Shown here in pieces: positions 1,463 through 64,000 of a stretch of DNA of 64,000 nt. Location: NCBI GenBank assembly GCA_963707865.1, contig OY970175.1:16748-80747 (forward strand). The letters run 5' to 3'. Every line of letters starts with the position of its first letter. Position 1 is the first letter of the stretch. Under the pieces are notes generated by a model. The model worked only from the letters and a program-made list of their open reading frames with translations, searched no databases and had not been told where the DNA came from. This stretch comes from an uncultured bacterium. Its GTDB lineage: Bacteria; Patescibacteriota; Minisyncoccia; UBA6257; 2-01-FULL-56-20. The position numbers and the translations under genes were made by a program.

Positions 1463-2896
1463 ATGGCGACTGCGAAAAAATATAAGCCGACCATCGGCTT
1501 GGAAATCCACGCGGAATTGAAAACGCGGACGAAGATGTTCTGTGATTCGCTGAATGATCCGGGGGAAAGGCGTCCAAATGTGAACGTCTGCCCGGTGTGT
1601 CTCGGGCATCCGGGGACATTGCCTGTTCCAAACAAGCGGGCGATAGAATACGTGCTGAAAACCGGACTCGCGCTCGGCGGACACGCGAACGCGGTCACCA
1701 AATTTGACCGCAAAAATTATTTCTATCCCGACCTCCCGAAGGGCTATCAGATTTCGCAGTACGACAAGCCGCTCATCCACGGCGGCGAATTAATGGGCGT
1801 CCGTATCCGGCGGGTCCACCTGGAAGAAGACACGGGGACACTCGTGCACGCGGGGGATGCCTCGCTCGTGGATTACAACCGTTCCGGCGTGCCTTTGATG
1901 GAACTTGTGACGGAGCCGGACTTACATAGTGCGGGCGACACTACCGCCTTCGCGCGTGAGCTCCAGCTCATATTGCGCTACCTCGGCGTTTCGGACGCCA
2001 ACATGGAAAAAGGGGAGATGCGCATTGAGGCAAACGTGAGCTTGGACATGGGCACAAAGGTGGAGCTCAAAAATATCAATTCGTTCAAGGCGGTGCACGA
2101 TGCGGTGGAATATGAACTCACGCGGCAGGAAGAGGCGCTTGCGCGCGGGGAGAAATTGACGCAAGAAACGCGGGGCTGGGACGAGGCGAAACAAAAAACC
2201 GTGTCACAGCGCTCAAAGGAGGAGGCGCACGATTATCGCTATTTTCCCGAACCGGACATCCCGCCGTTTGAAGCGATTGCGTTTGAGCCCGAAAGGCTGC
2301 GCGAGACGCTGCCCGAACTTCCTGCACAAAAGCGCACGCGGTTCGCGCGGGAATACGGCTTGGACGCGAGACAGGTGGAAATTTTGGTCTCCGACCGTTT
2401 CGCTGCCGATTATTTTGAAGAAGCGTCGTCGGAACTTTGCGAGCAATTGTCGGGTGAGCGTTTGTCCGCCACCGCCGTTGCGACGCTCTATAATTATCTT
2501 ACGAGCGATCTGCGGGGTTTGATGAATGAGGGCGATGTGGCATTCTCGGAATTGAAAGTGACGCCCGAACACCTCGCGCACCTTGCAGCGCTCGTTGAAG
2601 AAAAGAAAATAACGAGTCGCCAGGCGAAGGACATGCTCGCGAGAATGTTCGCAACCGGCGACGATCCAGGAGAGATCACAGCGAGCGAGGGTATTGGCGT
2701 GGTTTCTGATATGGGCGAGATAGAAACGGTCGTGCGCGCGGTCGTTGCGGAAAATCCAACCGCGGTTGCCGATTATAAAAAGGGTAAGACCGCGAGCCTG
2801 CAATTCCTGATCGGCAAGGCGATGGGCAAGCTGAAGGGCCGCGCGCAGCCCACGACGCTCAAAGAACTTTTTGAACGCAATCTGAATGGCGCTTGA
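1463..2896 (+). CDS. gatB: Asp-tRNA(Asn)/Glu-tRNA(Gln) amidotransferase subunit B
   Basis: N-terminal YKPTIGLEIHAEL and C-terminal GatB/YqeY domain; ATG at 1463 chosen inside the 1325 ORF because homology begins at MATAKKYKPT. Confidence 0.9.
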   Translation: MATAKKYKPTIGLEIHAELKTRTKMFCDSLNDPGERRPNVNVCPVCLGHPGTLPVPNKRAIEYVLKTGLALGGHANAVTKFDRKNYFYPDLPKGYQISQYDKPLIHGGELMGVRIRRVHLEEDTGTLVHAGDASLVDYNRSGVPLMELVTEPDLHSAGDTTAFARELQLILRYLGVSDANMEKGEMRIEANVSLDMGTKVELKNINSFKAVHDAVEYELTRQEEALARGEKLTQETRGWDEAKQKTVSQRSKEEAHDYRYFPEPDIPPFEAIAFEPERLRETLPELPAQKRTRFAREYGLDARQVEILVSDRFAADYFEEASSELCEQLSGERLSATAVATLYNYLTSDLRGLMNEGDVAFSELKVTPEHLAHLAALVEEKKITSRQAKDMLARMFATGDDPGEITASEGIGVVSDMGEIETVVRAVVAENPTAVADYKKGKTASLQFLIGKAMGKLKGRAQPTTLKELFERNLNGA

Positions 2897-3788
2897 AGGA
2901 CGCTATGGCCTCGCGAGATTGCCGGATCCAGCGAAGGTCTTTATCTTTCCTGAACCACGAGAGCTGGCGTTTGGCGTAGCGCCACGTGTTGGTTTTGATG
3001 CGCGCCACCGCATCTTCGAGGGAGGTCTTTCCTTGGAGGTGGTTTACAAGCTCGCGGTAGCCGATGGCATTCAGCGCCTCGCAATCGGCACCATATTTTT
3101 TTAAGAGCCATCTGACTTCCTTGAGGAGCCCGGCGCACATCATCTGGTCCGCGCGGGCGTTAATGCGTTTTCGGAGCTCGCCCAAAGGGGGATTAAGTCC
3201 GATTCTCAACGTATCAAAAAGCGGCGCGCGCGTTTTGCGCTGAGCGGTGAATGGTTTCCCGGTTGCGAGCGCGACCTCAAGCGCCCGCACGACGCGCCGC
3301 GGATTTTTCAGATCTACGATGTCCGCCGCTTCGGGATCAAGCACCACAAGTTTTTTCGCGACCGCGGCGAGCCCTTTTTTCTTGATCTCGCATTCAATTG
3401 CAGCGCGTAGCGTTGGATCCGCGCTTACTTTTGGGATGTCAAGGTTGTCCAGTACCGCCCTTACGTACAGTCCCGTGCCGCCGACAAGAATAGGCAGTTT
3501 TTTTCTCCGCAAAATGTTTTTGATCGCAGCAATGGCATCCGCCTTGTACTCTGCGACCGTATAATGTTCGTCAGGATTTTTTATATCAATAAGATGATGG
3601 GGGACGGCGCGCCGTTCCGCCAAAGTCGGCTTTGCCGTACCGATGTCCATCCCACGATAAACCTGCCGCGAATCTGCGGAGACGATTTCGCCATTGAACT
3701 TTTTGGCCATGGCGGCCGCAAGCGCGGTTTTTCCGCTTGCCGTTGGGCCGACGACAGCCACTATCTTTTTATAGCTTCTTTCTCTCAA
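2859..3788 (-). CDS. miaA: tRNA dimethylallyltransferase
   Basis: P-loop VVGPTASGKT and SADSRQVYRGMDIGTAKP motif; 309 aa; 3' end overlaps the convergent gatB by 38 nt. Confidence 0.9.
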   Translation of the reverse strand: MRERSYKKIVAVVGPTASGKTALAAAMAKKFNGEIVSADSRQVYRGMDIGTAKPTLAERRAVPHHLIDIKNPDEHYTVAEYKADAIAAIKNILRRKKLPILVGGTGLYVRAVLDNLDIPKVSADPTLRAAIECEIKKKGLAAVAKKLVVLDPEAADIVDLKNPRRVVRALEVALATGKPFTAQRKTRAPLFDTLRIGLNPPLGELRKRINARADQMMCAGLLKEVRWLLKKYGADCEALNAIGYRELVNHLQGKTSLEDAVARIKTNTWRYAKRQLSWFRKDKDLRWIRQSREAIASFKRHSDCVQKVL

Positions 3789-5520
3789 TATTTTCTCTGA
3801 TGTTTTTCAGAAAATCATCTAAATTTTGCGAGCCCTCGTCTCCTTTTTTTGTCCGGACGGCCACCGCGCCGTTTTTTTGTTCTTTTTCGCCGACCACGAG
3901 TATAGAGGGGATTTTCATGAGCTCCGCTTCGCGGATGCGCTTGCCGAGCGACTCGTTCGCCTCCGAAAGTTCCGCGCGGACACCAGCGGTTGCAAGTTTT
4001 TCATAAACCTCGCGCGCATATTCGGAAAATTTTTCGCTTACGGGGAGCACGCATACTTGCGTGGGCGCGAGCCAGAGAGGGAAGGCACCCGCAAAATGTT
4101 CAATAAGGACGCCAAGGAACCGTTCAATGGAACCCATGATGGCGGCGTGGATCATGACGATCCGCTCATGTTCGCCTTTCTCGTTTACGCAGAAAAGATC
4201 AAAACGCTCCGGCATATTCATATCTAGTTGGATGGTCGCCACTTGGTGTTCGCGGCCGAGCGCGTCTTTTGCCATAAAGTCCAGCTTCGGGCCATAGAAT
4301 GCCGCTTCACCGACGCCTTCAAACGTTTCCGTCGTTTTCTCCGCTGCGATCTCGCGGAGCATGTTCTCCGCTTGCTTCCAGTGTTTCGCGTCGCCCAAGT
4401 ATTTTTCGGGATGTACTGGGTCGTGGAGCGAGAGCCGTACGCGGAGCGGAAAGCCGAACACGCCGTAGAACTCGTGCACAATGTCCCAAATTTTCACGAA
4501 CTCCTCTTTGGTTTGCGATTGCCGGCAGAAGACGTGCGCATCGTCCTGTGTGATCGCGAGGACACGCGTGATCCCCGCGAGCTCGCCCGATTGTTCATCA
4601 CGATATACTTTAGTGGTCGTTGCATACCGCTGCGGGAGTTCGCGGTAGCTCCATTGCCGGCGCGCGTAGATCTGCGCGTGGTGCGGGCAGTTCATCGGCT
4701 TCATGACGAAGAGGTGCCCCTCGCGCGTCGTTATTTTAAAAAGATCGTCTTTGAATTTTTCCCAATGGCCGCTTGTCTCGTAGAGCTCTTTTTTGGCAAG
4801 ATGGGGGATATCCACCTGCACATAGCCACGTTCCTCGCGGAGTTCCCAGACGAAATCGTCAAGGAGATTGCGGAGGAGCGTACCTTTCGGGGTCCAAAGG
4901 GGAAGTCCCGGTCCCACAAGGTCAGAAAACGTAAAAAGATCCAGCCGCTCACCAAGCTTTTTGTGATCGCGTTTCTCGGCCTCTTCGCGGAGCGTGAGGA
5001 AGTCACCCAATTCTTTTTTGCTCCCGAATGCGAGGCCATAGATGCGCTGGAGCATCGGATTTTTCTCGTTGCCGCGCCAGTAGGCGCCCGCGATCTTGTC
5101 CAATTTGAACGCGTCGCCGGGAATTTCTTTTGTGTTTTCCACATGCCCGCCGCGGCAAAGGTCCATAAAGACCTCGCCCGTGCGGTAGACGGTCAGCTTT
5201 TCACCGCCCTCCGAGAATTCTTTGACGAGTTCCAATTTGAACGGCTGGTTCTTGAAAAGTTTTTTTGCTTCGGCCACGGTCACGGGTTCGCCCGCGAACG
5301 GCATATTTTTGTTGACGAGACTCCGCATCGTTTTTTCAAATGTCTTCAGATCGTCGGGCGTGAGCGAGCGCGGCAGAAGAAAATCATAATAAAACCCGCT
5401 CTCAATCGTGGGGCCGATGCCGAGTTTCGCGTCCGGGAATTCCTTCAAGACCGCCGCGGCGAGCAAGTGGGCGAGCGAGTGGCGGATGGCATCCAACGAA
5501 GCAGGTTCCGATTTCGGCAT
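3769..5520 (-). CDS. thrS: threonyl-tRNA synthetase (compact, no N1/TGS domain)
   Basis: Starts at the editing domain (RHSLAHLLAAAV, HxxxH); RDHKKLG motif; class II catalytic core and C-terminal anticodon-binding domain; 583 aa. Confidence 0.88.
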   Translation of the reverse strand: MPKSEPASLDAIRHSLAHLLAAAVLKEFPDAKLGIGPTIESGFYYDFLLPRSLTPDDLKTFEKTMRSLVNKNMPFAGEPVTVAEAKKLFKNQPFKLELVKEFSEGGEKLTVYRTGEVFMDLCRGGHVENTKEIPGDAFKLDKIAGAYWRGNEKNPMLQRIYGLAFGSKKELGDFLTLREEAEKRDHKKLGERLDLFTFSDLVGPGLPLWTPKGTLLRNLLDDFVWELREERGYVQVDIPHLAKKELYETSGHWEKFKDDLFKITTREGHLFVMKPMNCPHHAQIYARRQWSYRELPQRYATTTKVYRDEQSGELAGITRVLAITQDDAHVFCRQSQTKEEFVKIWDIVHEFYGVFGFPLRVRLSLHDPVHPEKYLGDAKHWKQAENMLREIAAEKTTETFEGVGEAAFYGPKLDFMAKDALGREHQVATIQLDMNMPERFDLFCVNEKGEHERIVMIHAAIMGSIERFLGVLIEHFAGAFPLWLAPTQVCVLPVSEKFSEYAREVYEKLATAGVRAELSEANESLGKRIREAELMKIPSILVVGEKEQKNGAVAVRTKKGDEGSQNLDDFLKNIRENIERKKL

Positions 5521-6882: not shown

Positions 6883-7704
6883 ATGAAAATCGGGGTCTTT
6901 GACTCTGGTTTGGGCGGGCTGTTTATCATGCGGGCTTTGGCGCGCGAACTTCCTCAATACGACTATGTATATCTTGGCGACACGCAACGGGTGCCGTATG
7001 GCAATCGCTCGCCGGAGACGATATATCAATTTTTGGAAGAAGCCGTTTATTTTTTGTTCAAGAGAAATTGCAACCTTATTATCGTCGCGTGCAATACGGC
7101 GTCCGCGGAAGCGCTCCGTAAGATCCAACGGCAGTATCTTCCGCGGCATTATCCAAAACGGCGAGTCCTCGGCGTAATAATCCCCACAGTGGAAGAGGCC
7201 CTCGCAACTGTCAGCGAGAGCAATACTGGAAGGGTTTCAGCACTAAGGCGGCTCGGTGTGCTCGCCACCACGGGTACTGTTCGATCGGGAACTTATGTGC
7301 GGGAGGTGCGTAAACTGAATCCGCGTGCGAAGGTTTTCCAAAATGCCGCACCGCTACTTGTTCCTTTGATTGAAAACGACGGGCTGCAATGGGCGGACCC
7401 GATTGTACGCGTATATCTCGCGCCGCTCACGCGGAAAAAAGTAGAAAAGATCGTTTTAGGATGTACGCATTATCCCGCTCTTAAAAAAACGATTCAAAAG
7501 GCAGCCGGCGTCCCCGTGATTTCCCAGGATGAGATCATTCCGCGCAAATTAAAAGATTATTTAAAGCGCCACCCGGAGATAGATTCGCGGTTGGACAAGA
7601 AGCGCAGAAGGGAACTCCTCGTTACGGACATCACGCCGGCGTATGTGAGATTATCTCGGAAGTGGTTCGGGAAAACTGCAAAACTGAAAAGCGTTGTGTT
7701 GTGA
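6883..7704 (+). CDS. murI: glutamate racemase
   Basis: MKIGVFDSGLGGL and CNTAS active-site regions; start set at the internal ATG just after the serS stop. Confidence 0.85.
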   Translation: MKIGVFDSGLGGLFIMRALARELPQYDYVYLGDTQRVPYGNRSPETIYQFLEEAVYFLFKRNCNLIIVACNTASAEALRKIQRQYLPRHYPKRRVLGVIIPTVEEALATVSESNTGRVSALRRLGVLATTGTVRSGTYVREVRKLNPRAKVFQNAAPLLVPLIENDGLQWADPIVRVYLAPLTRKKVEKIVLGCTHYPALKKTIQKAAGVPVISQDEIIPRKLKDYLKRHPEIDSRLDKKRRRELLVTDITPAYVRLSRKWFGKTAKLKSVVL

Positions 7705-60957: not shown

Positions 60958-61099
60958 GCTATCCCCCTATCCTTCTTTTTTTGTGATTTAACAAGCCTAG
61001 TAAAGCAAGTTAAAGGCCGACCATATTTTAGTATATTTATTAATTAATGTCAATCAGTTCGTCGTAATATCTTCATTGGGCGGGTGTATACTGAACCTA

Positions 61100-61825
61100 A
61101 TGTCTCGCAAATCCGGGCGCAAAAAGAAGCTCGCTATTTTTGACATTGACGGGACGATCTTCCGGTCCAGCCTGCTCATTGAACTTGTGGACGCGCTGAT
61201 CCACGAGGGGATCTTCAAGCCGAGCGCGATGCGGATCTACGAGCGGGATAAACGCGCATGGCTTGACCGGAAGGGGGACTACGACGCCTATATTAAAAGT
61301 GTCGTGAGGGCGTTCCTCAAAAATATCAAAGGCGTGCCGTATGTCCGCTTCGCGCGCGTGGCAAAAAAGGTGGTCGCGCTCCACAAGAACCGCGTGTACC
61401 GTTATACGCGCGATCTCGTTCACGCTTTGCGGCGCAAGGGATATTGGCTCGTCGCAATTTCGCACTCGCCGCGCGGGATCGTGGGGCCGTTCGCCGCACA
61501 GATGGGATTTCATAAAGTGTACGGGTTGCTGTACGAGCTTAGCCCCACGGGGCGGTTCAACGGGAAGGTGATGTTTGAGGATCTTATTTTTGACAAGGCG
61601 AAGATCGTGGCACGCGTGCTTGCAAAAGAAGATGTCACGCTTCGCGGGTCCGTGGGCGTGGGGGATACGGAGGGCGACATTCCTTTTTTAAAGCTCGTCA
61701 CCCGGGCGATCTGCTTCAATCCGAACGGGAAGCTCTACCGCGCGGCGCGCCGCCGCGGCTGGGAGGTCATCGTGGAGCGGAAGGATGTGGTGTACCGGAT
61801 TCAACAATCTTATGGAAAAGCTTGA
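61100..61825 (+). CDS. HAD-superfamily hydrolase (HAD-IB, phosphoserine-phosphatase-like)
   Basis: Motif I LAIFDIDGTI, motif II and motif III (GDTEGDIPFL). Confidence 0.65.
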   Translation: MSRKSGRKKKLAIFDIDGTIFRSSLLIELVDALIHEGIFKPSAMRIYERDKRAWLDRKGDYDAYIKSVVRAFLKNIKGVPYVRFARVAKKVVALHKNRVYRYTRDLVHALRRKGYWLVAISHSPRGIVGPFAAQMGFHKVYGLLYELSPTGRFNGKVMFEDLIFDKAKIVARVLAKEDVTLRGSVGVGDTEGDIPFLKLVTRAICFNPNGKLYRAARRRGWEVIVERKDVVYRIQQSYGKA

Positions 61826-62972
61826 AGCAAAAGACCGCGTCTTCACGATCGGCGAATATATAGAGATCCTGAACACGTTCTTCAAGGCGCAGGCGGCGAG
61901 GATCACGGGGGAGGTCTCGGAACTGAAACGCGCGGCATCGGGCCACGTGTATTTCACGATCAAAGGCAAGGGTGACGGCGGCGTGAACGACGGCGGCGTT
62001 TTGGATTGCATCATCTGGAACCGCAACTACGACCTTTGCGGGGTCACGCTTGAAGTGGGCATGGAAGTGATCCTTTCGGGGCACCCGAACATTTACGCGC
62101 CGAACGGACGATTGTCGTTTATCGCGGACACGGTGGAGCTCGTGGGCGAAGGGGCGCTTAAAAAGGCATACGACGCGCTCCGCAAAAAATTGGAAGCCGA
62201 GGGGGTATTCGCGCCAGAGCGGAAACGGCCGCTTCCGGAATATCCGACGAAGATCGGCGTCGTCACGTCCATGAAGGGCGCCGTTATCCATGATTTTCTG
62301 AACAACCTCGGGAAGTTCGGGTTCAAGGTGCGCGCGGCGGATTCGCGCGTGGAGGGCCAGGCAGCGGTCGTGCCTCTTTTGAAAGCGCTTGCCGTTATGC
62401 GGAAGGAAGCGCTCGCGGGGCGGCTTGACGTGCTCGTCCTGATCCGCGGCGGCGGCTCGCTTGAATCGTTGCAGGCGTTCAATAATGAAAAGCTTGTGCG
62501 CGAGATCGTGGATTTCCCGGTGCCGGTCATCGCAGGGATCGGGCATGACAAAGACGTGCCCTTGGCCGCGCTTGCGGCGGACTTTATGGCATCCACCCCG
62601 ACCGCGACGGCGCATCTTTTGAGCGCGCCGTGGGAAGAGGCGTACGCGAAGGTGAGGGAAGTCGCGTATCTTTTTTCCCGGATAGAATCGCGGTTTGAAC
62701 GGATCCGCGCGGACATGGATACCGCCTGGAGCACTGTTTTGGACCGCACGGCGCAGGGGATTGAACACGTGAGGGAAACGCTCACGAACGCGGAGCGATT
62801 ACTGCGGCTCCACGATCCGCGCAGGCCCTTGCGACTCGGCTATGCGATCGTGCGGAAGGATGATGTGGGACGGACGGGGAAATTGGTGCGGAGCGTGCGG
62901 GACGTCACCGCCGGAGATGTTTTGAACACGGAACTTGCGGACGGGGTGGTGAGGTCAAGGGTGGAGGAGTGA
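61812..62972 (+). CDS. xseA: exodeoxyribonuclease VII large subunit
   Basis: N-terminal OB fold (VSELKRAASGHVYFTIKG), catalytic region GIGHDKDVPLAALAADFMASTPTA. Confidence 0.8.
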   Translation: MEKLEAKDRVFTIGEYIEILNTFFKAQAARITGEVSELKRAASGHVYFTIKGKGDGGVNDGGVLDCIIWNRNYDLCGVTLEVGMEVILSGHPNIYAPNGRLSFIADTVELVGEGALKKAYDALRKKLEAEGVFAPERKRPLPEYPTKIGVVTSMKGAVIHDFLNNLGKFGFKVRAADSRVEGQAAVVPLLKALAVMRKEALAGRLDVLVLIRGGGSLESLQAFNNEKLVREIVDFPVPVIAGIGHDKDVPLAALAADFMASTPTATAHLLSAPWEEAYAKVREVAYLFSRIESRFERIRADMDTAWSTVLDRTAQGIEHVRETLTNAERLLRLHDPRRPLRLGYAIVRKDDVGRTGKLVRSVRDVTAGDVLNTELADGVVRSRVEE

Positions 62973-63196
62973 TGATTTTTTAGACGTTTACTTAAATAAA
63001 AACGGACCCCTTGCGGGGTCCTCGGGTGCCTAATGGCAATAGTACTGTCATTATAGTTGAGGACTTTGAATATCGTTTGAGCATGGAAAAAGTTCATTAA
63101 AATCAGAAATCCGCCCGTGAGGGCGGATTTCGATCAAAAACGAGTAAGCCAAATGCTTACTTGGTTATTGTAGCAAAACAGTTGGCTTCGTCAGGT

Positions 63197-63234
63197 GTTT
63201 TTTAATGATTTTTTAATCTCTGTCATGCTATAAT
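63197..63234 (+). promoter_or_regulatory. promoter-like box TTTTTTAATG ... TTTTTTAATC-N10-TATAAT (copy D)
   Basis: GTGTTTTTTAATGATTTTTTAATCTCTGTCATGCTATAATAATCG; drives no ORF. Confidence 0.45.
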
Positions 63235-63240
63235 AATCGT

Positions 63241-63316
63241 GTGCTTGGGGGACTAACGTCCCGTTCGGCAAAGCTGAGCCCAAGCACGCTAAAGACACCG
63301 CGCGAGCGGCGTTTTT
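63241..63316 (+). ncRNA. candidate small structured RNA (10-bp stem GTGCTTGGGG...CCCAAGCAC enclosing GGAC-TAAC-GTCC, then weak hairpin + T5)
   Basis: Promoter, hairpins and T-run in series with no ORF; T-run abuts the stop codon of the convergent BrnT-like gene. Confidence 0.3.
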
Positions 63317-63746
63317 AGTTCTGAGGTTTTGATCCGAATAATTTTTCATCGCGCTTGGGGCTGGTTTGGAAGTCAGGGATAATGCTCCAAAAATGTGTCA
63401 TGCCATTTTCGCCCATCTTTCTTATTACGACCTTGATCTTTTCGCCGCGTAAAATCGCGATAATCCCCCAGTAGCGAACCATTTTATTCTTCCTGCGGTG
63501 CATTTCCACCGTCATTTCAAATTCCTGGTGGGTGGTAGAAAGTCCAATGAGCTCAACTGCCAAGGGAAGCAGGGAAAAGCGTCTGATCTGCTGGTTTCTT
63601 GCGCGCCCCTTGCGGCCTCGTTTGAAAAGGATATGCCGGAAACCGTGATTGGAAAAATATATCAGTTCCCGTAGGGCCGGAGAAAAAACAGCACCGATCG
63701 TTTGGTAATATTTCCCGGCTTCGGCACGAACGAGCCCGTAGTCCAT
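63315..63746 (-). CDS. BrnT-like (DUF497, RelE/ParE superfamily) ribonuclease-toxin-like protein; no adjacent antitoxin ORF
   Basis: C-terminal VRYWGIIAILRGEKIKVVIRKMGE resembles the BrnT R-F/Y-W...RGEKIRIISARKA signature; N-terminal SNHGF resembles the KHG region; assignment by recall only. Confidence 0.35.
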   Translation of the reverse strand: MDYGLVRAEAGKYYQTIGAVFSPALRELIYFSNHGFRHILFKRGRKGRARNQQIRRFSLLPLAVELIGLSTTHQEFEMTVEMHRRKNKMVRYWGIIAILRGEKIKVVIRKMGENGMTHFWSIIPDFQTSPKRDEKLFGSKPQN

Positions 63747-63840
63747 GAACCCATTGTGCTCCGCAAGCCATTAAATCATTCTAAAATTGGGATTGGCCCT
63801 CACGTGCCGAATTTTTTCCGAACGCGGTATAATAAAACCA

Positions 63841-64000
63841 ATGGCTGCGAAACCCGCGAAAGAAGATTTCAAACATCAGTTGGAGGAGATCGGAAAGATC
63901 CTTGCGTGGTTTGACGCGCAGGAGGAACTGGATGTGGAAGCGGCGCTCGGGAAGATAAAGAAAGCGGCGGAGCTTATCAAGGCGAGCCGGAAGAGGTTGG
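63841..64000 (+). CDS. xseB: exodeoxyribonuclease VII small subunit (5' partial in window)
   Basis: MAAKPAKEDFKHQLEEIGKILAWFDAQEELDVEAALGKIKKAAELIKASRKRL matches the XseB helical hairpin; TATAAT at ~63824. Confidence 0.65.
   Translation, partial: MAAKPAKEDFKHQLEEIGKILAWFDAQEELDVEAALGKIKKAAELIKASRKRL

Follow-up and report, generated by a model that had tools for sequence, protein, structure and literature searches.

Protein genes that have no protein antitoxin and are accompanied by an adjacent, dedicated and structured non-coding RNA are found in the type III toxin-antitoxin (TA) systems ToxIN, CptIN and TenpIN, in which the RNA is highly expressed. Such systems form compact, mobile and patchily distributed units, and their cognate variants are mutually specific. 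Precedents outside the ToxN group are AbiF (Abi_2) with its RNA RCd22 and AvcD with AvcI (AvcID), where a conserved structured RNA linked to the toxin gene neutralises the toxin by direct binding (10.1101/2025.04.15.648962; PMC10511110). The locus described here lies in a window of 64,000 nucleotides, the whole stretch of DNA that was analysed (contig OY970175.1, assembly GCA_963707865.1), from an uncultured bacterium of the Patescibacteriota, or candidate phyla radiation (CPR). In this window, xseA and xseB, the genes for the large and small subunits of exonuclease VII, are separated by inserted DNA that carries a gene for a protein of 143 amino acids (aa) and, convergent to it, a gene for a small RNA (sRNA). 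The insert is best read as a self-contained, horizontally mobile two-gene module made of a protein and an RNA.

The protein is related to LPD3, which was defined among 40 domains of 'elusive' function in the polyvalent proteins of phages and conjugative elements (Iyer et al., 2017, PMC5512222). In phage polyvalent proteins LPD3 co-occurs with effector and toxin domains (PMC5512222), as it does among the BFVD matches obtained here. No functional work on LPD3 after that publication was found in a literature search. An earlier description of the protein-RNA pair was found neither in Pfam, NCBIfam, PADLOC, PHROGs and Rfam 15 nor in the full-text literature, for which coverage was incomplete.

A conserved three-way-junction RNA

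The gene for the 143-aa protein occupies 63315-63746 on the minus strand, with its stop codon at 63315-63317, and the RNA of ~76 nt is encoded on the plus strand at 63241-63316. The fold of this RNA has an energy of -47.2 kcal/mol (z = -7.25) and comprises a three-way junction and, after it, a terminator. The junction core (63241-63287) scores 85.2 bits (E 3e-19) with R1, a covariance model built from 8 RNA copies. In the minimum free energy fold, the core consists of a closing helix P1 (63241-63248 with 63280-63287), a helix P2 (63249-63253 with 63258-63262) capped by the loop UAAC, and a helix P3 (63263-63269 with 63273-63279) capped by the loop AAA. Behind it stands a bidirectional intrinsic terminator of A-tract, hairpin and T-run (63288-63319), which serves both the sRNA and the protein mRNA. 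The T-run at 63312-63316 overlaps the stop codon of the protein gene, as the original prediction had stated, and the distance from the stop codon to the RNA 3' end mostly falls between -3 and +3 nt across 84 loci.

The structure is carried by covariation. Among 83 distinct copies, standard pairs occupy 97.2% of cells; sliding the partner lowers this share to 46-55%. Both sides have changed in 16 pairs, and the observed values were not attained in any of 500 shuffles. Compensatory changes are found even in the terminator helix (helix 4), at 9 of its 14 pairs. G-U pairs are frequent (e.g. 13-55, 14-27 and 10-58). Read from the opposite strand they turn into A-C mismatches, which assigns the structure to the strand that runs convergent to the protein gene. 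Judged by this covariation, the promoter-plus-hairpin unit is a genuine conserved small RNA, and the hairpin-rich plus-strand unit with its own promoter, which had been predicted from the window alone, is present.

The RNA could not be assigned to a described class. In Rfam 15, no family overlaps 63241-63316 save a chance match to Atu_C8 (E = 3), and five other copies gave no match; known RNA families, including the abiF motif, ToxI, RNAI and ctRNA, were thus rejected. A tRNA or tmRNA was rejected since ARAGORN found none in the region. Riboswitch-like antitermination was also rejected: P1 does not vary, but the sequence of the terminator stem drifts freely, which leaves no conserved alternative pairing. 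The sRNA does not appear to encode a peptide, as the reading frame is not kept between subgroups and the substitutions are compensatory for structure. The P3 loop was considered as a mimic of an anti-start-codon or an anticodon and rejected, because the feature is not conserved in the 143-aa subgroup. No tandem repeats were found in the module.

Two-way coupling of protein gene and RNA gene

The protein gene had been predicted to lack an antitoxin open reading frame (ORF), and this holds well beyond the window: no conserved protein partner or antitoxin-like ORF was found here or in more than 150 related loci (numbered with the prefix L below). The constant neighbour is the RNA. When GTDB loci were retrieved via the protein alone, 79 of 80 were found to carry the RNA at 53-91 bits, and it is present in the same score range at the window and at L001, L003, L005, L006, L007 and L009. 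It is always on the strand opposite the protein gene and starts within a few tens of nucleotides (~40) of the stop codon. At the sole locus with a protein and without an RNA (L051), the 3' end of the protein gene has been replaced by a serine recombinase fragment (3440-4230). The reverse search gave a corresponding result. Metagenome loci were found by an RNA-only pattern, and a convergent LPD3-like ORF was present at 67 of the 72 copies with enough flanking DNA. Of the five exceptions, L104 has a truncated RNA, L108 and L112 retain decayed remnants of the protein gene, and L163 and L173 are true orphans.

The arrangement is kept by divergent members. In three genomic contexts (L006, L005 and L001) the unit is convergent to a homologous gene and bears compensatory changes. 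The RNA also accompanies a subgroup of the protein with 159 aa (L003, L007 and L009), and members of ~30% identity (L094 and L091) retain their own promoter and junction, with helices that differ by compensatory changes. L006 contains a second, divergent paralog (2676-3121) between a HAD gene and xseA (hhalign 99.4%), with a variant RNA of its own (E 4e-7), and L007 holds two adjacent modules (second copy 4516-4923). An extra variant RNA without a protein was noted at L069 (3624-3734).

The coupling of protein and RNA is established as an obligate two-way synteny with cognate variants. Also established is an asymmetry of orphans, in that RNA without protein exists and intact protein without RNA does not, which is as expected if the protein needs the RNA.

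Opposed promoters of unequal strength

Every sRNA copy has a promoter of the sigma-70 type, with a mean consensus match of 9.4/12; the spacing from the end of the -10 hexamer to GTG is exactly 6 nt in 76 of 83 homologous copies. In the window, the extended -10 of the sRNA, TGcTATAAT (63226-63234, plus strand), is separated by 6 nt from the first G of the RNA, and upstream of it lies an AT-rich box, TTTAATGATTTTTTAAT, at 63201-63217 on the same strand; the copy of a promoter box that had been predicted 5' of the hairpin unit is therefore present. Promoters of the protein gene are weaker, with a mean of 7.4/12 versus 6.0 for a random control. The putative promoter region of the window gene (63753-63786, minus strand) has a -10-like CACAAT at 63753-63758, 6 nt before the ATG. 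In the 81 loci compared, the ATG of the protein gene is preceded at 5-8 nt by a TAnAnT hexamer and has no Shine-Dalgarno sequence. Because the hexamer is so near the ATG and a Shine-Dalgarno sequence is lacking, the protein mRNA appears to be leaderless. That a strong sRNA promoter opposes a weak protein promoter is established.

A DnaA-box-like 9-mer, TTATCCACA (at most 1 mismatch), was found in 30 of 83 sRNA promoters. In 26 of the 83 it occupies a fixed position at -47 to -52, the expected background being 0.03 per 80 nt. On the protein side, it is present in only 3 of 81 promoters. This suggests DnaA-dependent control of the sRNA, as read from the promoter sequences. The sRNA promoter of the window has no such 9-mer. 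At loci between L011 and L090 (examples are L027, L023, L039, L054, L081, L029 and L072), the 9-mer stands directly 5' of the -35, 42-52 nt upstream of the sRNA start.

The AT-rich box is not restricted to the module. It has 6 copies in the window, against 0.08 expected, and a 22-mer of it also stands 5' of the sRNA promoters in L001, L007 and L066 and 5' of unrelated genes. Both module promoters of the window are preceded by the box in inverted orientation (63201-63217 and 63770-63786), which creates an inverted repeat. Its presence at unrelated genes marks the box as an element of promoters in general rather than the end of a transposon. As ~17-22 nt (TTTAATnATTTTTTAAT), it was observed at window positions 7548, 10773, 17770, 32823, 33159 and 63201 and at L001, L005, L006, L007 and L066. 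In this lineage it occurs in both orientations 5' of the promoters of unrelated genes, and its role may be that of an UP element or of a site for a global regulator.

The convergent layout raises the question of antisense control. If the pair were type I-like, the sRNA would pair with the mRNA at their complementary 3' ends, in the terminator, and trigger its decay. A bidirectional terminator over the stop codon of convergent genes is known from the Firmicutes systems par/Fst, txpA/RatA and bsrG/SR4 (PMC7472228), and an sRNA promoter much stronger than that of the mRNA fits the same scheme. However, the product here is a basic, soluble protein of 143-159 aa and not a hydrophobic peptide of less than 60 aa. 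Moreover, the terminator is the only element complementary between sRNA and mRNA, by construction, and its sequence drifts freely. Targeting of the cognate coding sequence by the sRNA was rejected, because the duplex energies are no better than those of shuffled sequences; the conserved junction shows no excess complementarity to it (mean duplex z -0.27, n=82). A leaderless mRNA offers no ribosome-binding site to mask, and the invariant loops of the junction would be left unexplained. Control of the type I kind is thus improbable.

A distant solo member of the LPD3 superfamily

The 143-aa protein is basic, with a pI of 10.6; the family has a median pI of 9.8 and a net charge of about +11. The protein is real and conserved, with 21 close homologs found among 5.8 billion proteins. 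The family profile matched 686 sequences at E<1e-3 and 164 at E<1e-10 in 1.84 billion cluster representatives, the 686 being representative protein clusters at 50% identity. Named homologs are all called 'hypothetical', and the genome loci of the family are nearly all from Patescibacteria. The members are solo proteins of 124-220 aa, with the subgroups of 143 aa and 159 aa, and the residues G35, H38 and R48 are invariant in 44 diverse members.

Twenty of these 44 match LPD3 (PF18798) at E<=0.1 (best E 2.7e-6), and the matches span positions 2-114 of the 114-position profile. One member alone, P0161, exceeds the LPD3 gathering score (28.0 bits versus a cut-off of 27), and the window protein itself has no match to PF18798 in the Pfam search. 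An AF2 model of the protein (pLDDT 84, pTM 0.78) is soluble alpha+beta, and its best Foldseek neighbours in BFVD are LPD3-annotated or PolyVal phage proteins (probability 0.93-1.0, TMq 0.43-0.59), so that the predicted fold is common to the protein and LPD3 domains. On these profile and model comparisons, the 143-aa protein is a distant solo member of the LPD3 superfamily.

This placement replaces the original one, in which the C-terminus of the protein was thought to resemble BrnT/RelE-type toxins. No toxin or other family match was obtained in Pfam (E<=1), NCBIfam (E<=10) or PADLOC, and PHROGs gave noise only. Hidden Markov models (HMMs) of BrnT (PF04365), RelE and ParE matched neither the window protein nor any of the 44 diverse members. 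The family profile found nothing relevant among PDB sequences, and Foldseek of the model found nothing in the PDB. One might still suppose an orphan type II toxin whose antitoxin was lost or mis-annotated, with hairpins and a promoter that are unrelated terminators. Besides the missing BrnT, RelE, ParE and PDB similarity, however, no adjacent protein ORF is conserved in the more than 150 loci, and the RNA is conserved, covarying and furnished with its own promoter. We regard the chance of a BrnT/RelE type II toxin as very remote, and this reading is essentially excluded.

Other assignments were considered for the protein. A known defence or phage protein family was rejected, as PADLOC had no match and PHROGs only noise. 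The protein was absent from the 50,697 phage records, the 72,556 plasmids and the IMG/VR collection that were searched, and a phage, plasmid or viral origin was rejected on that ground.

Proposed mechanism

The following mechanism would join these observations. A small basic LPD3-family protein would be made from a weak promoter as a leaderless mRNA, while the convergent, strongly promoted gene would supply the ~76-nt sRNA, with its three-way junction and the terminator common to both transcripts. The abundant sRNA would bind the cognate protein via the conserved junction and loops and keep it inactive. Once the supply of sRNA drops, the free protein, possibly an RNA-binding protein or a metal-independent RNase in which H38 and R48 are central, would harm the cell or an invader. 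In the window, such a module would have inserted itself precisely at the junction of the xseA stop codon with the xseB promoter. AbiF/RCd22 and AvcID offer precedents for neutralisation of a non-ToxN toxin by a structured RNA. We infer the binding of RNA to protein, the nature of the trigger and the toxicity, including that the protein is a toxin at all, and a type III-like TA or defence mechanism is accordingly held as a tentative reading, a little short of an even chance. The obligate synteny and the cognate variants support such binding indirectly. The length of P3 varies together with a hairpin insertion in the protein, which lends the type III-like arrangement weak support, the cases not being phylogenetically independent.

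As for the original idea of an RNA-antitoxin or a new toxin-sRNA module in a housekeeping operon, the part that stands is the partnerless protein gene with its convergent, structured and covarying sRNA, coupled to it in both directions of search. Its alternative of a type I-like or type III-like system resolves unevenly: type I is unlikely for a basic soluble product of 143 aa and an RNA that shows no complementarity to the mRNA outside the terminator, and type III-like fits best.

Several observations weigh against a neutralised toxin. No significant toxin homology or PADLOC match was found, and the protein is missing from the phage, plasmid and IMG/VR collections. Type III antitoxins normally co-diverge with their toxins; here, unusually for such antitoxins, conservation across phyla is higher in the RNA core and its loops than in the protein. 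The DnaA-box-like motif at many sRNA promoters could mean a regulatory role linked to the cell cycle, and the orphan RNAs are just as compatible with the RNA being the functional member of the pair.

These points lead to the second explanation to be weighed, a non-toxic ribonucleoprotein (RNP) or regulatory pair. The sRNA would then be an effector, a substrate or a sponge, and the LPD3 protein its dedicated binding, processing or chaperone partner, by analogy with CsrA/CsrB or Ro/Y-RNA; the pair may be wired to replication status via DnaA. The two-way synteny supports this pair equally strongly. The near-invariance of the RNA core and loops in very distant hosts suggests a conserved cellular target or mimicry, the DnaA-box-like 9-mer stands at its fixed position in 26 of 83 sRNA promoters, orphan sRNA genes persist without the protein, and similarity to toxins is not detectable by HMM, PADLOC or PDB searches. 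On the other hand, a housekeeping RNP would not typically show a patchy, multi-copy and context-hopping spread together with cognate paralog pairs, and the state of protein without RNA is essentially absent. The junction has no conserved complementarity to its own mRNA, and the other home of LPD3 is in conflict-related phage polyvalent proteins (PMC5512222). A non-toxic pair is considered rather less likely than the type III-like mechanism, of which it is a serious competitor.

Mobility and distribution

The module is ~650 bp in length, DNA similarity between modules ends at the two promoters, and terminal repeats are lacking. Transposon-like ends and target duplications were rejected, since similarity stops at the promoters and the inverted repeat of the window is the general AT-rich box. 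The module recurs in hundreds of lineages with a patchy distribution; its genomic contexts vary, and some genomes have two copies. Such a distribution is typical of selfish or defence modules, and by sequence comparison the module moves horizontally between intergenic sites. The second module of L006 lies on the other side of the xse locus, and thus this neighbourhood seems to be a recurrent landing site.

Brevundimonas carries the module with an almost unchanged RNA core. The loci L085, L087 and L090 (Brevundimonas/Caulobacteraceae) place it in GC-rich alphaproteobacteria outside the CPR. At L085, the neighbours are hypothetical genes, an HTH_3 regulator and a non-specific endonuclease, a setting that suggests horizontal transfer into a genomic island.

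Large serine recombinases adjoin the module at L009 (3312-4991), L010 and L052, in some loci with the gene of the module 10 nt downstream of the recombinase, and ~100 nt of a recombinase-like 3' end (...DDVRTA...) are left in several loci. At L031, L044, L032, L036, L050, L056 and L057 the link to recombinases is on the 5' side of the protein gene. Integrative elements may carry the module or have it as their target. Two other neighbourhoods deserve mention. At L091, a tRNA-like sequence (3200-3270) and an IS1595 transposase (3602-4468) adjoin a distant member of the module. At L005, a stretch at ~2660-2800, next to the module and before the gene for S-adenosylmethionine (SAM) synthetase, looks like a SAM-I riboswitch (…TTATCCAGAG…GGCCC…).

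The insertion site and its flanks

The original prediction that xseA and xseB are split by an insert is confirmed by comparison with L006, a related contig that encodes a homolog with 73% identity to the 143-aa protein. On that contig the two exonuclease genes follow each other directly, 9 nt apart, with the sequence ...GGTGGAAGAAGTATAATAACCAAATGG. In the alignment, the window xseA matches that of L006 up to GGTGGAGGAG at 62960-62969; homology is lost after 62969 and comes back at the TATAAT that begins at 63828, as seen on both sides of the gap. From these points of break and resumption, ~858 bp (62970-63827) are inserted exactly between the end of xseA and the start region of xseB.

Upstream of the insert on the plus strand are a HAD hydrolase gene (61076-61825) and xseA (61785-62972, stop codon 62970-62972), which matches Exonuc_VII_L at 6.2e-58 and tRNA_anti_2 at 5e-17 in Pfam. 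The longest xseA ORF runs 41 nt into the end of the HAD hydrolase gene (61785-61825). The start of xseA is uncertain, and a downstream ATG (e.g. 61809) may be the true one. On the other side, xseB has its TATAAT at 63828-63833 and its ATG at 63841 on the plus strand, and is cut by the window end at 64000. The window fragment of xseB aligns with a 76-aa ORF adjoining xseA in L006, which scores 1.4e-4 against Exonuc_VII_S at 22.3 bits, under the cut-off of 24 bits; the fragment itself scores 0.034 in Pfam. Taken together with the gene order, these matches indicate that both exonuclease VII subunit genes are present at the locus.

Three strong hairpins had been noted between xseA and the sRNA, and they exist, rich in G+C, at 63004-63021, 63106-63131 and 63141-63163 (terminator scan; fold z = -5.1). 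They are specific to the window and outside the conserved module: DNA similar to the stretch 63004-63163 was found in no fetched locus, and the hairpins were rejected as a module part for their absence from all other loci. Each precedes a T-run on the minus strand, and from this they are read as stacked minus-strand terminators. Weak Rfam matches to RNAI, ctRNA and the rnk leader are at chance level and lie within these hairpins, outside the conserved RNA. Divergent from the sRNA promoter is a promoter-like site on the minus strand, CTGACG-16-TACAAT with TG (63194-63167), and the window-specific stretch 62995-63194 could be a further tiny transcript or a terminator stack that shields xseA.

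Implications

CPR bacteria are ultra-small and carry tiny genomes; most of their small genes lack annotation, and the defence or TA systems recognised in them are few. Solo LPD3 proteins with a three-way-junction sRNA might form an unrecognised and widespread class of protein-RNA conflict or regulatory systems, in which the nearly invariant sRNA is maybe a mimic of a conserved cellular RNA that restrains an RNA-targeting effector, and the supply of the sRNA is set by DnaA in many lineages. This broader proposal, which counts at least 686 protein clusters at 50% identity, mostly from CPR/Patescibacteria, is offered as speculative and rather doubtful. If true, replication status or DnaA-titrating invading DNA would be the trigger, and the module would give the first functional handle on a domain that phages inject within polyvalent proteins.

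If the sRNA neutralises the protein, RNA-antitoxin systems gain a new protein fold and a new RNA architecture, and a role for the LPD3 domain of phage polyvalent proteins would be suggested as well; if the two instead form a regulatory RNP wired to DnaA, they would stand as a conserved pair of sRNA and protein, of a kind that is rare in CPR bacteria. Under either reading, the RNA motif merits inclusion in Rfam, and the protein recognition as a separate family. The anatomy of the unit, with two convergent promoters, a leaderless mRNA, a three-way-junction sRNA and a common terminator, is fully defined, and the unit is small enough for direct synthesis and testing.

Comparison with known systems

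To BrnT/BrnA and RelE/ParE the protein has no HMM or sequence similarity. The locus has no protein antitoxin, and, unlike in these toxins, the conserved residues G35, H38 and R48 are in the N-terminal half. LPD3 polyvalent proteins are related through the domain. Those are giant injected proteins, whereas the protein described here is a solo chromosomal protein of CPR bacteria, and it has an RNA partner, which has been reported for no LPD3 domain.

In layout, the locus resembles the convergent type I loci of Gram-positive bacteria, par (Fst-RNAII), txpA/RatA and bsrG/SR4, which likewise have overlapping 3' ends or a bidirectional terminator and a stronger promoter for the RNA. Their toxins, however, are small membrane peptides under the control of RNA-RNA pairing, whereas here the product is a basic protein of 143 aa and pairing was detected nowhere outside the terminator. 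With AbiF/RCd22 and AvcD/AvcI the locus has in common a conserved structured RNA linked to the protein gene. The protein families are Abi_2/HEPN-like and deaminase in those systems and LPD3 here, and the RNA motifs differ, with no Rfam or Pfam match between them and this module. Their RNA is upstream of the gene or overlaps its 5' end, while here it is convergent at the 3' end.

Type III systems resemble the locus in overall plan and differ in the parts. Their toxins are endoRNases of the ToxN/AbiQ fold, whereas the LPD3-like protein has no ToxN signature in Pfam or PADLOC. Their antitoxins are tandem repeats on the same strand, upstream of the toxin gene behind a terminator, and are processed by the toxin; the RNA described here has no tandem repeats and is a single three-way junction with its own promoter, convergent to the protein gene and sharing a terminator with it. 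Furthermore, its sequence is far more conserved than that of the protein. What the locus shares with type III systems is the plan itself: a protein gene without a protein antitoxin, an adjacent and dedicated structured RNA, and a compact, mobile and patchily distributed unit with cognate variants.

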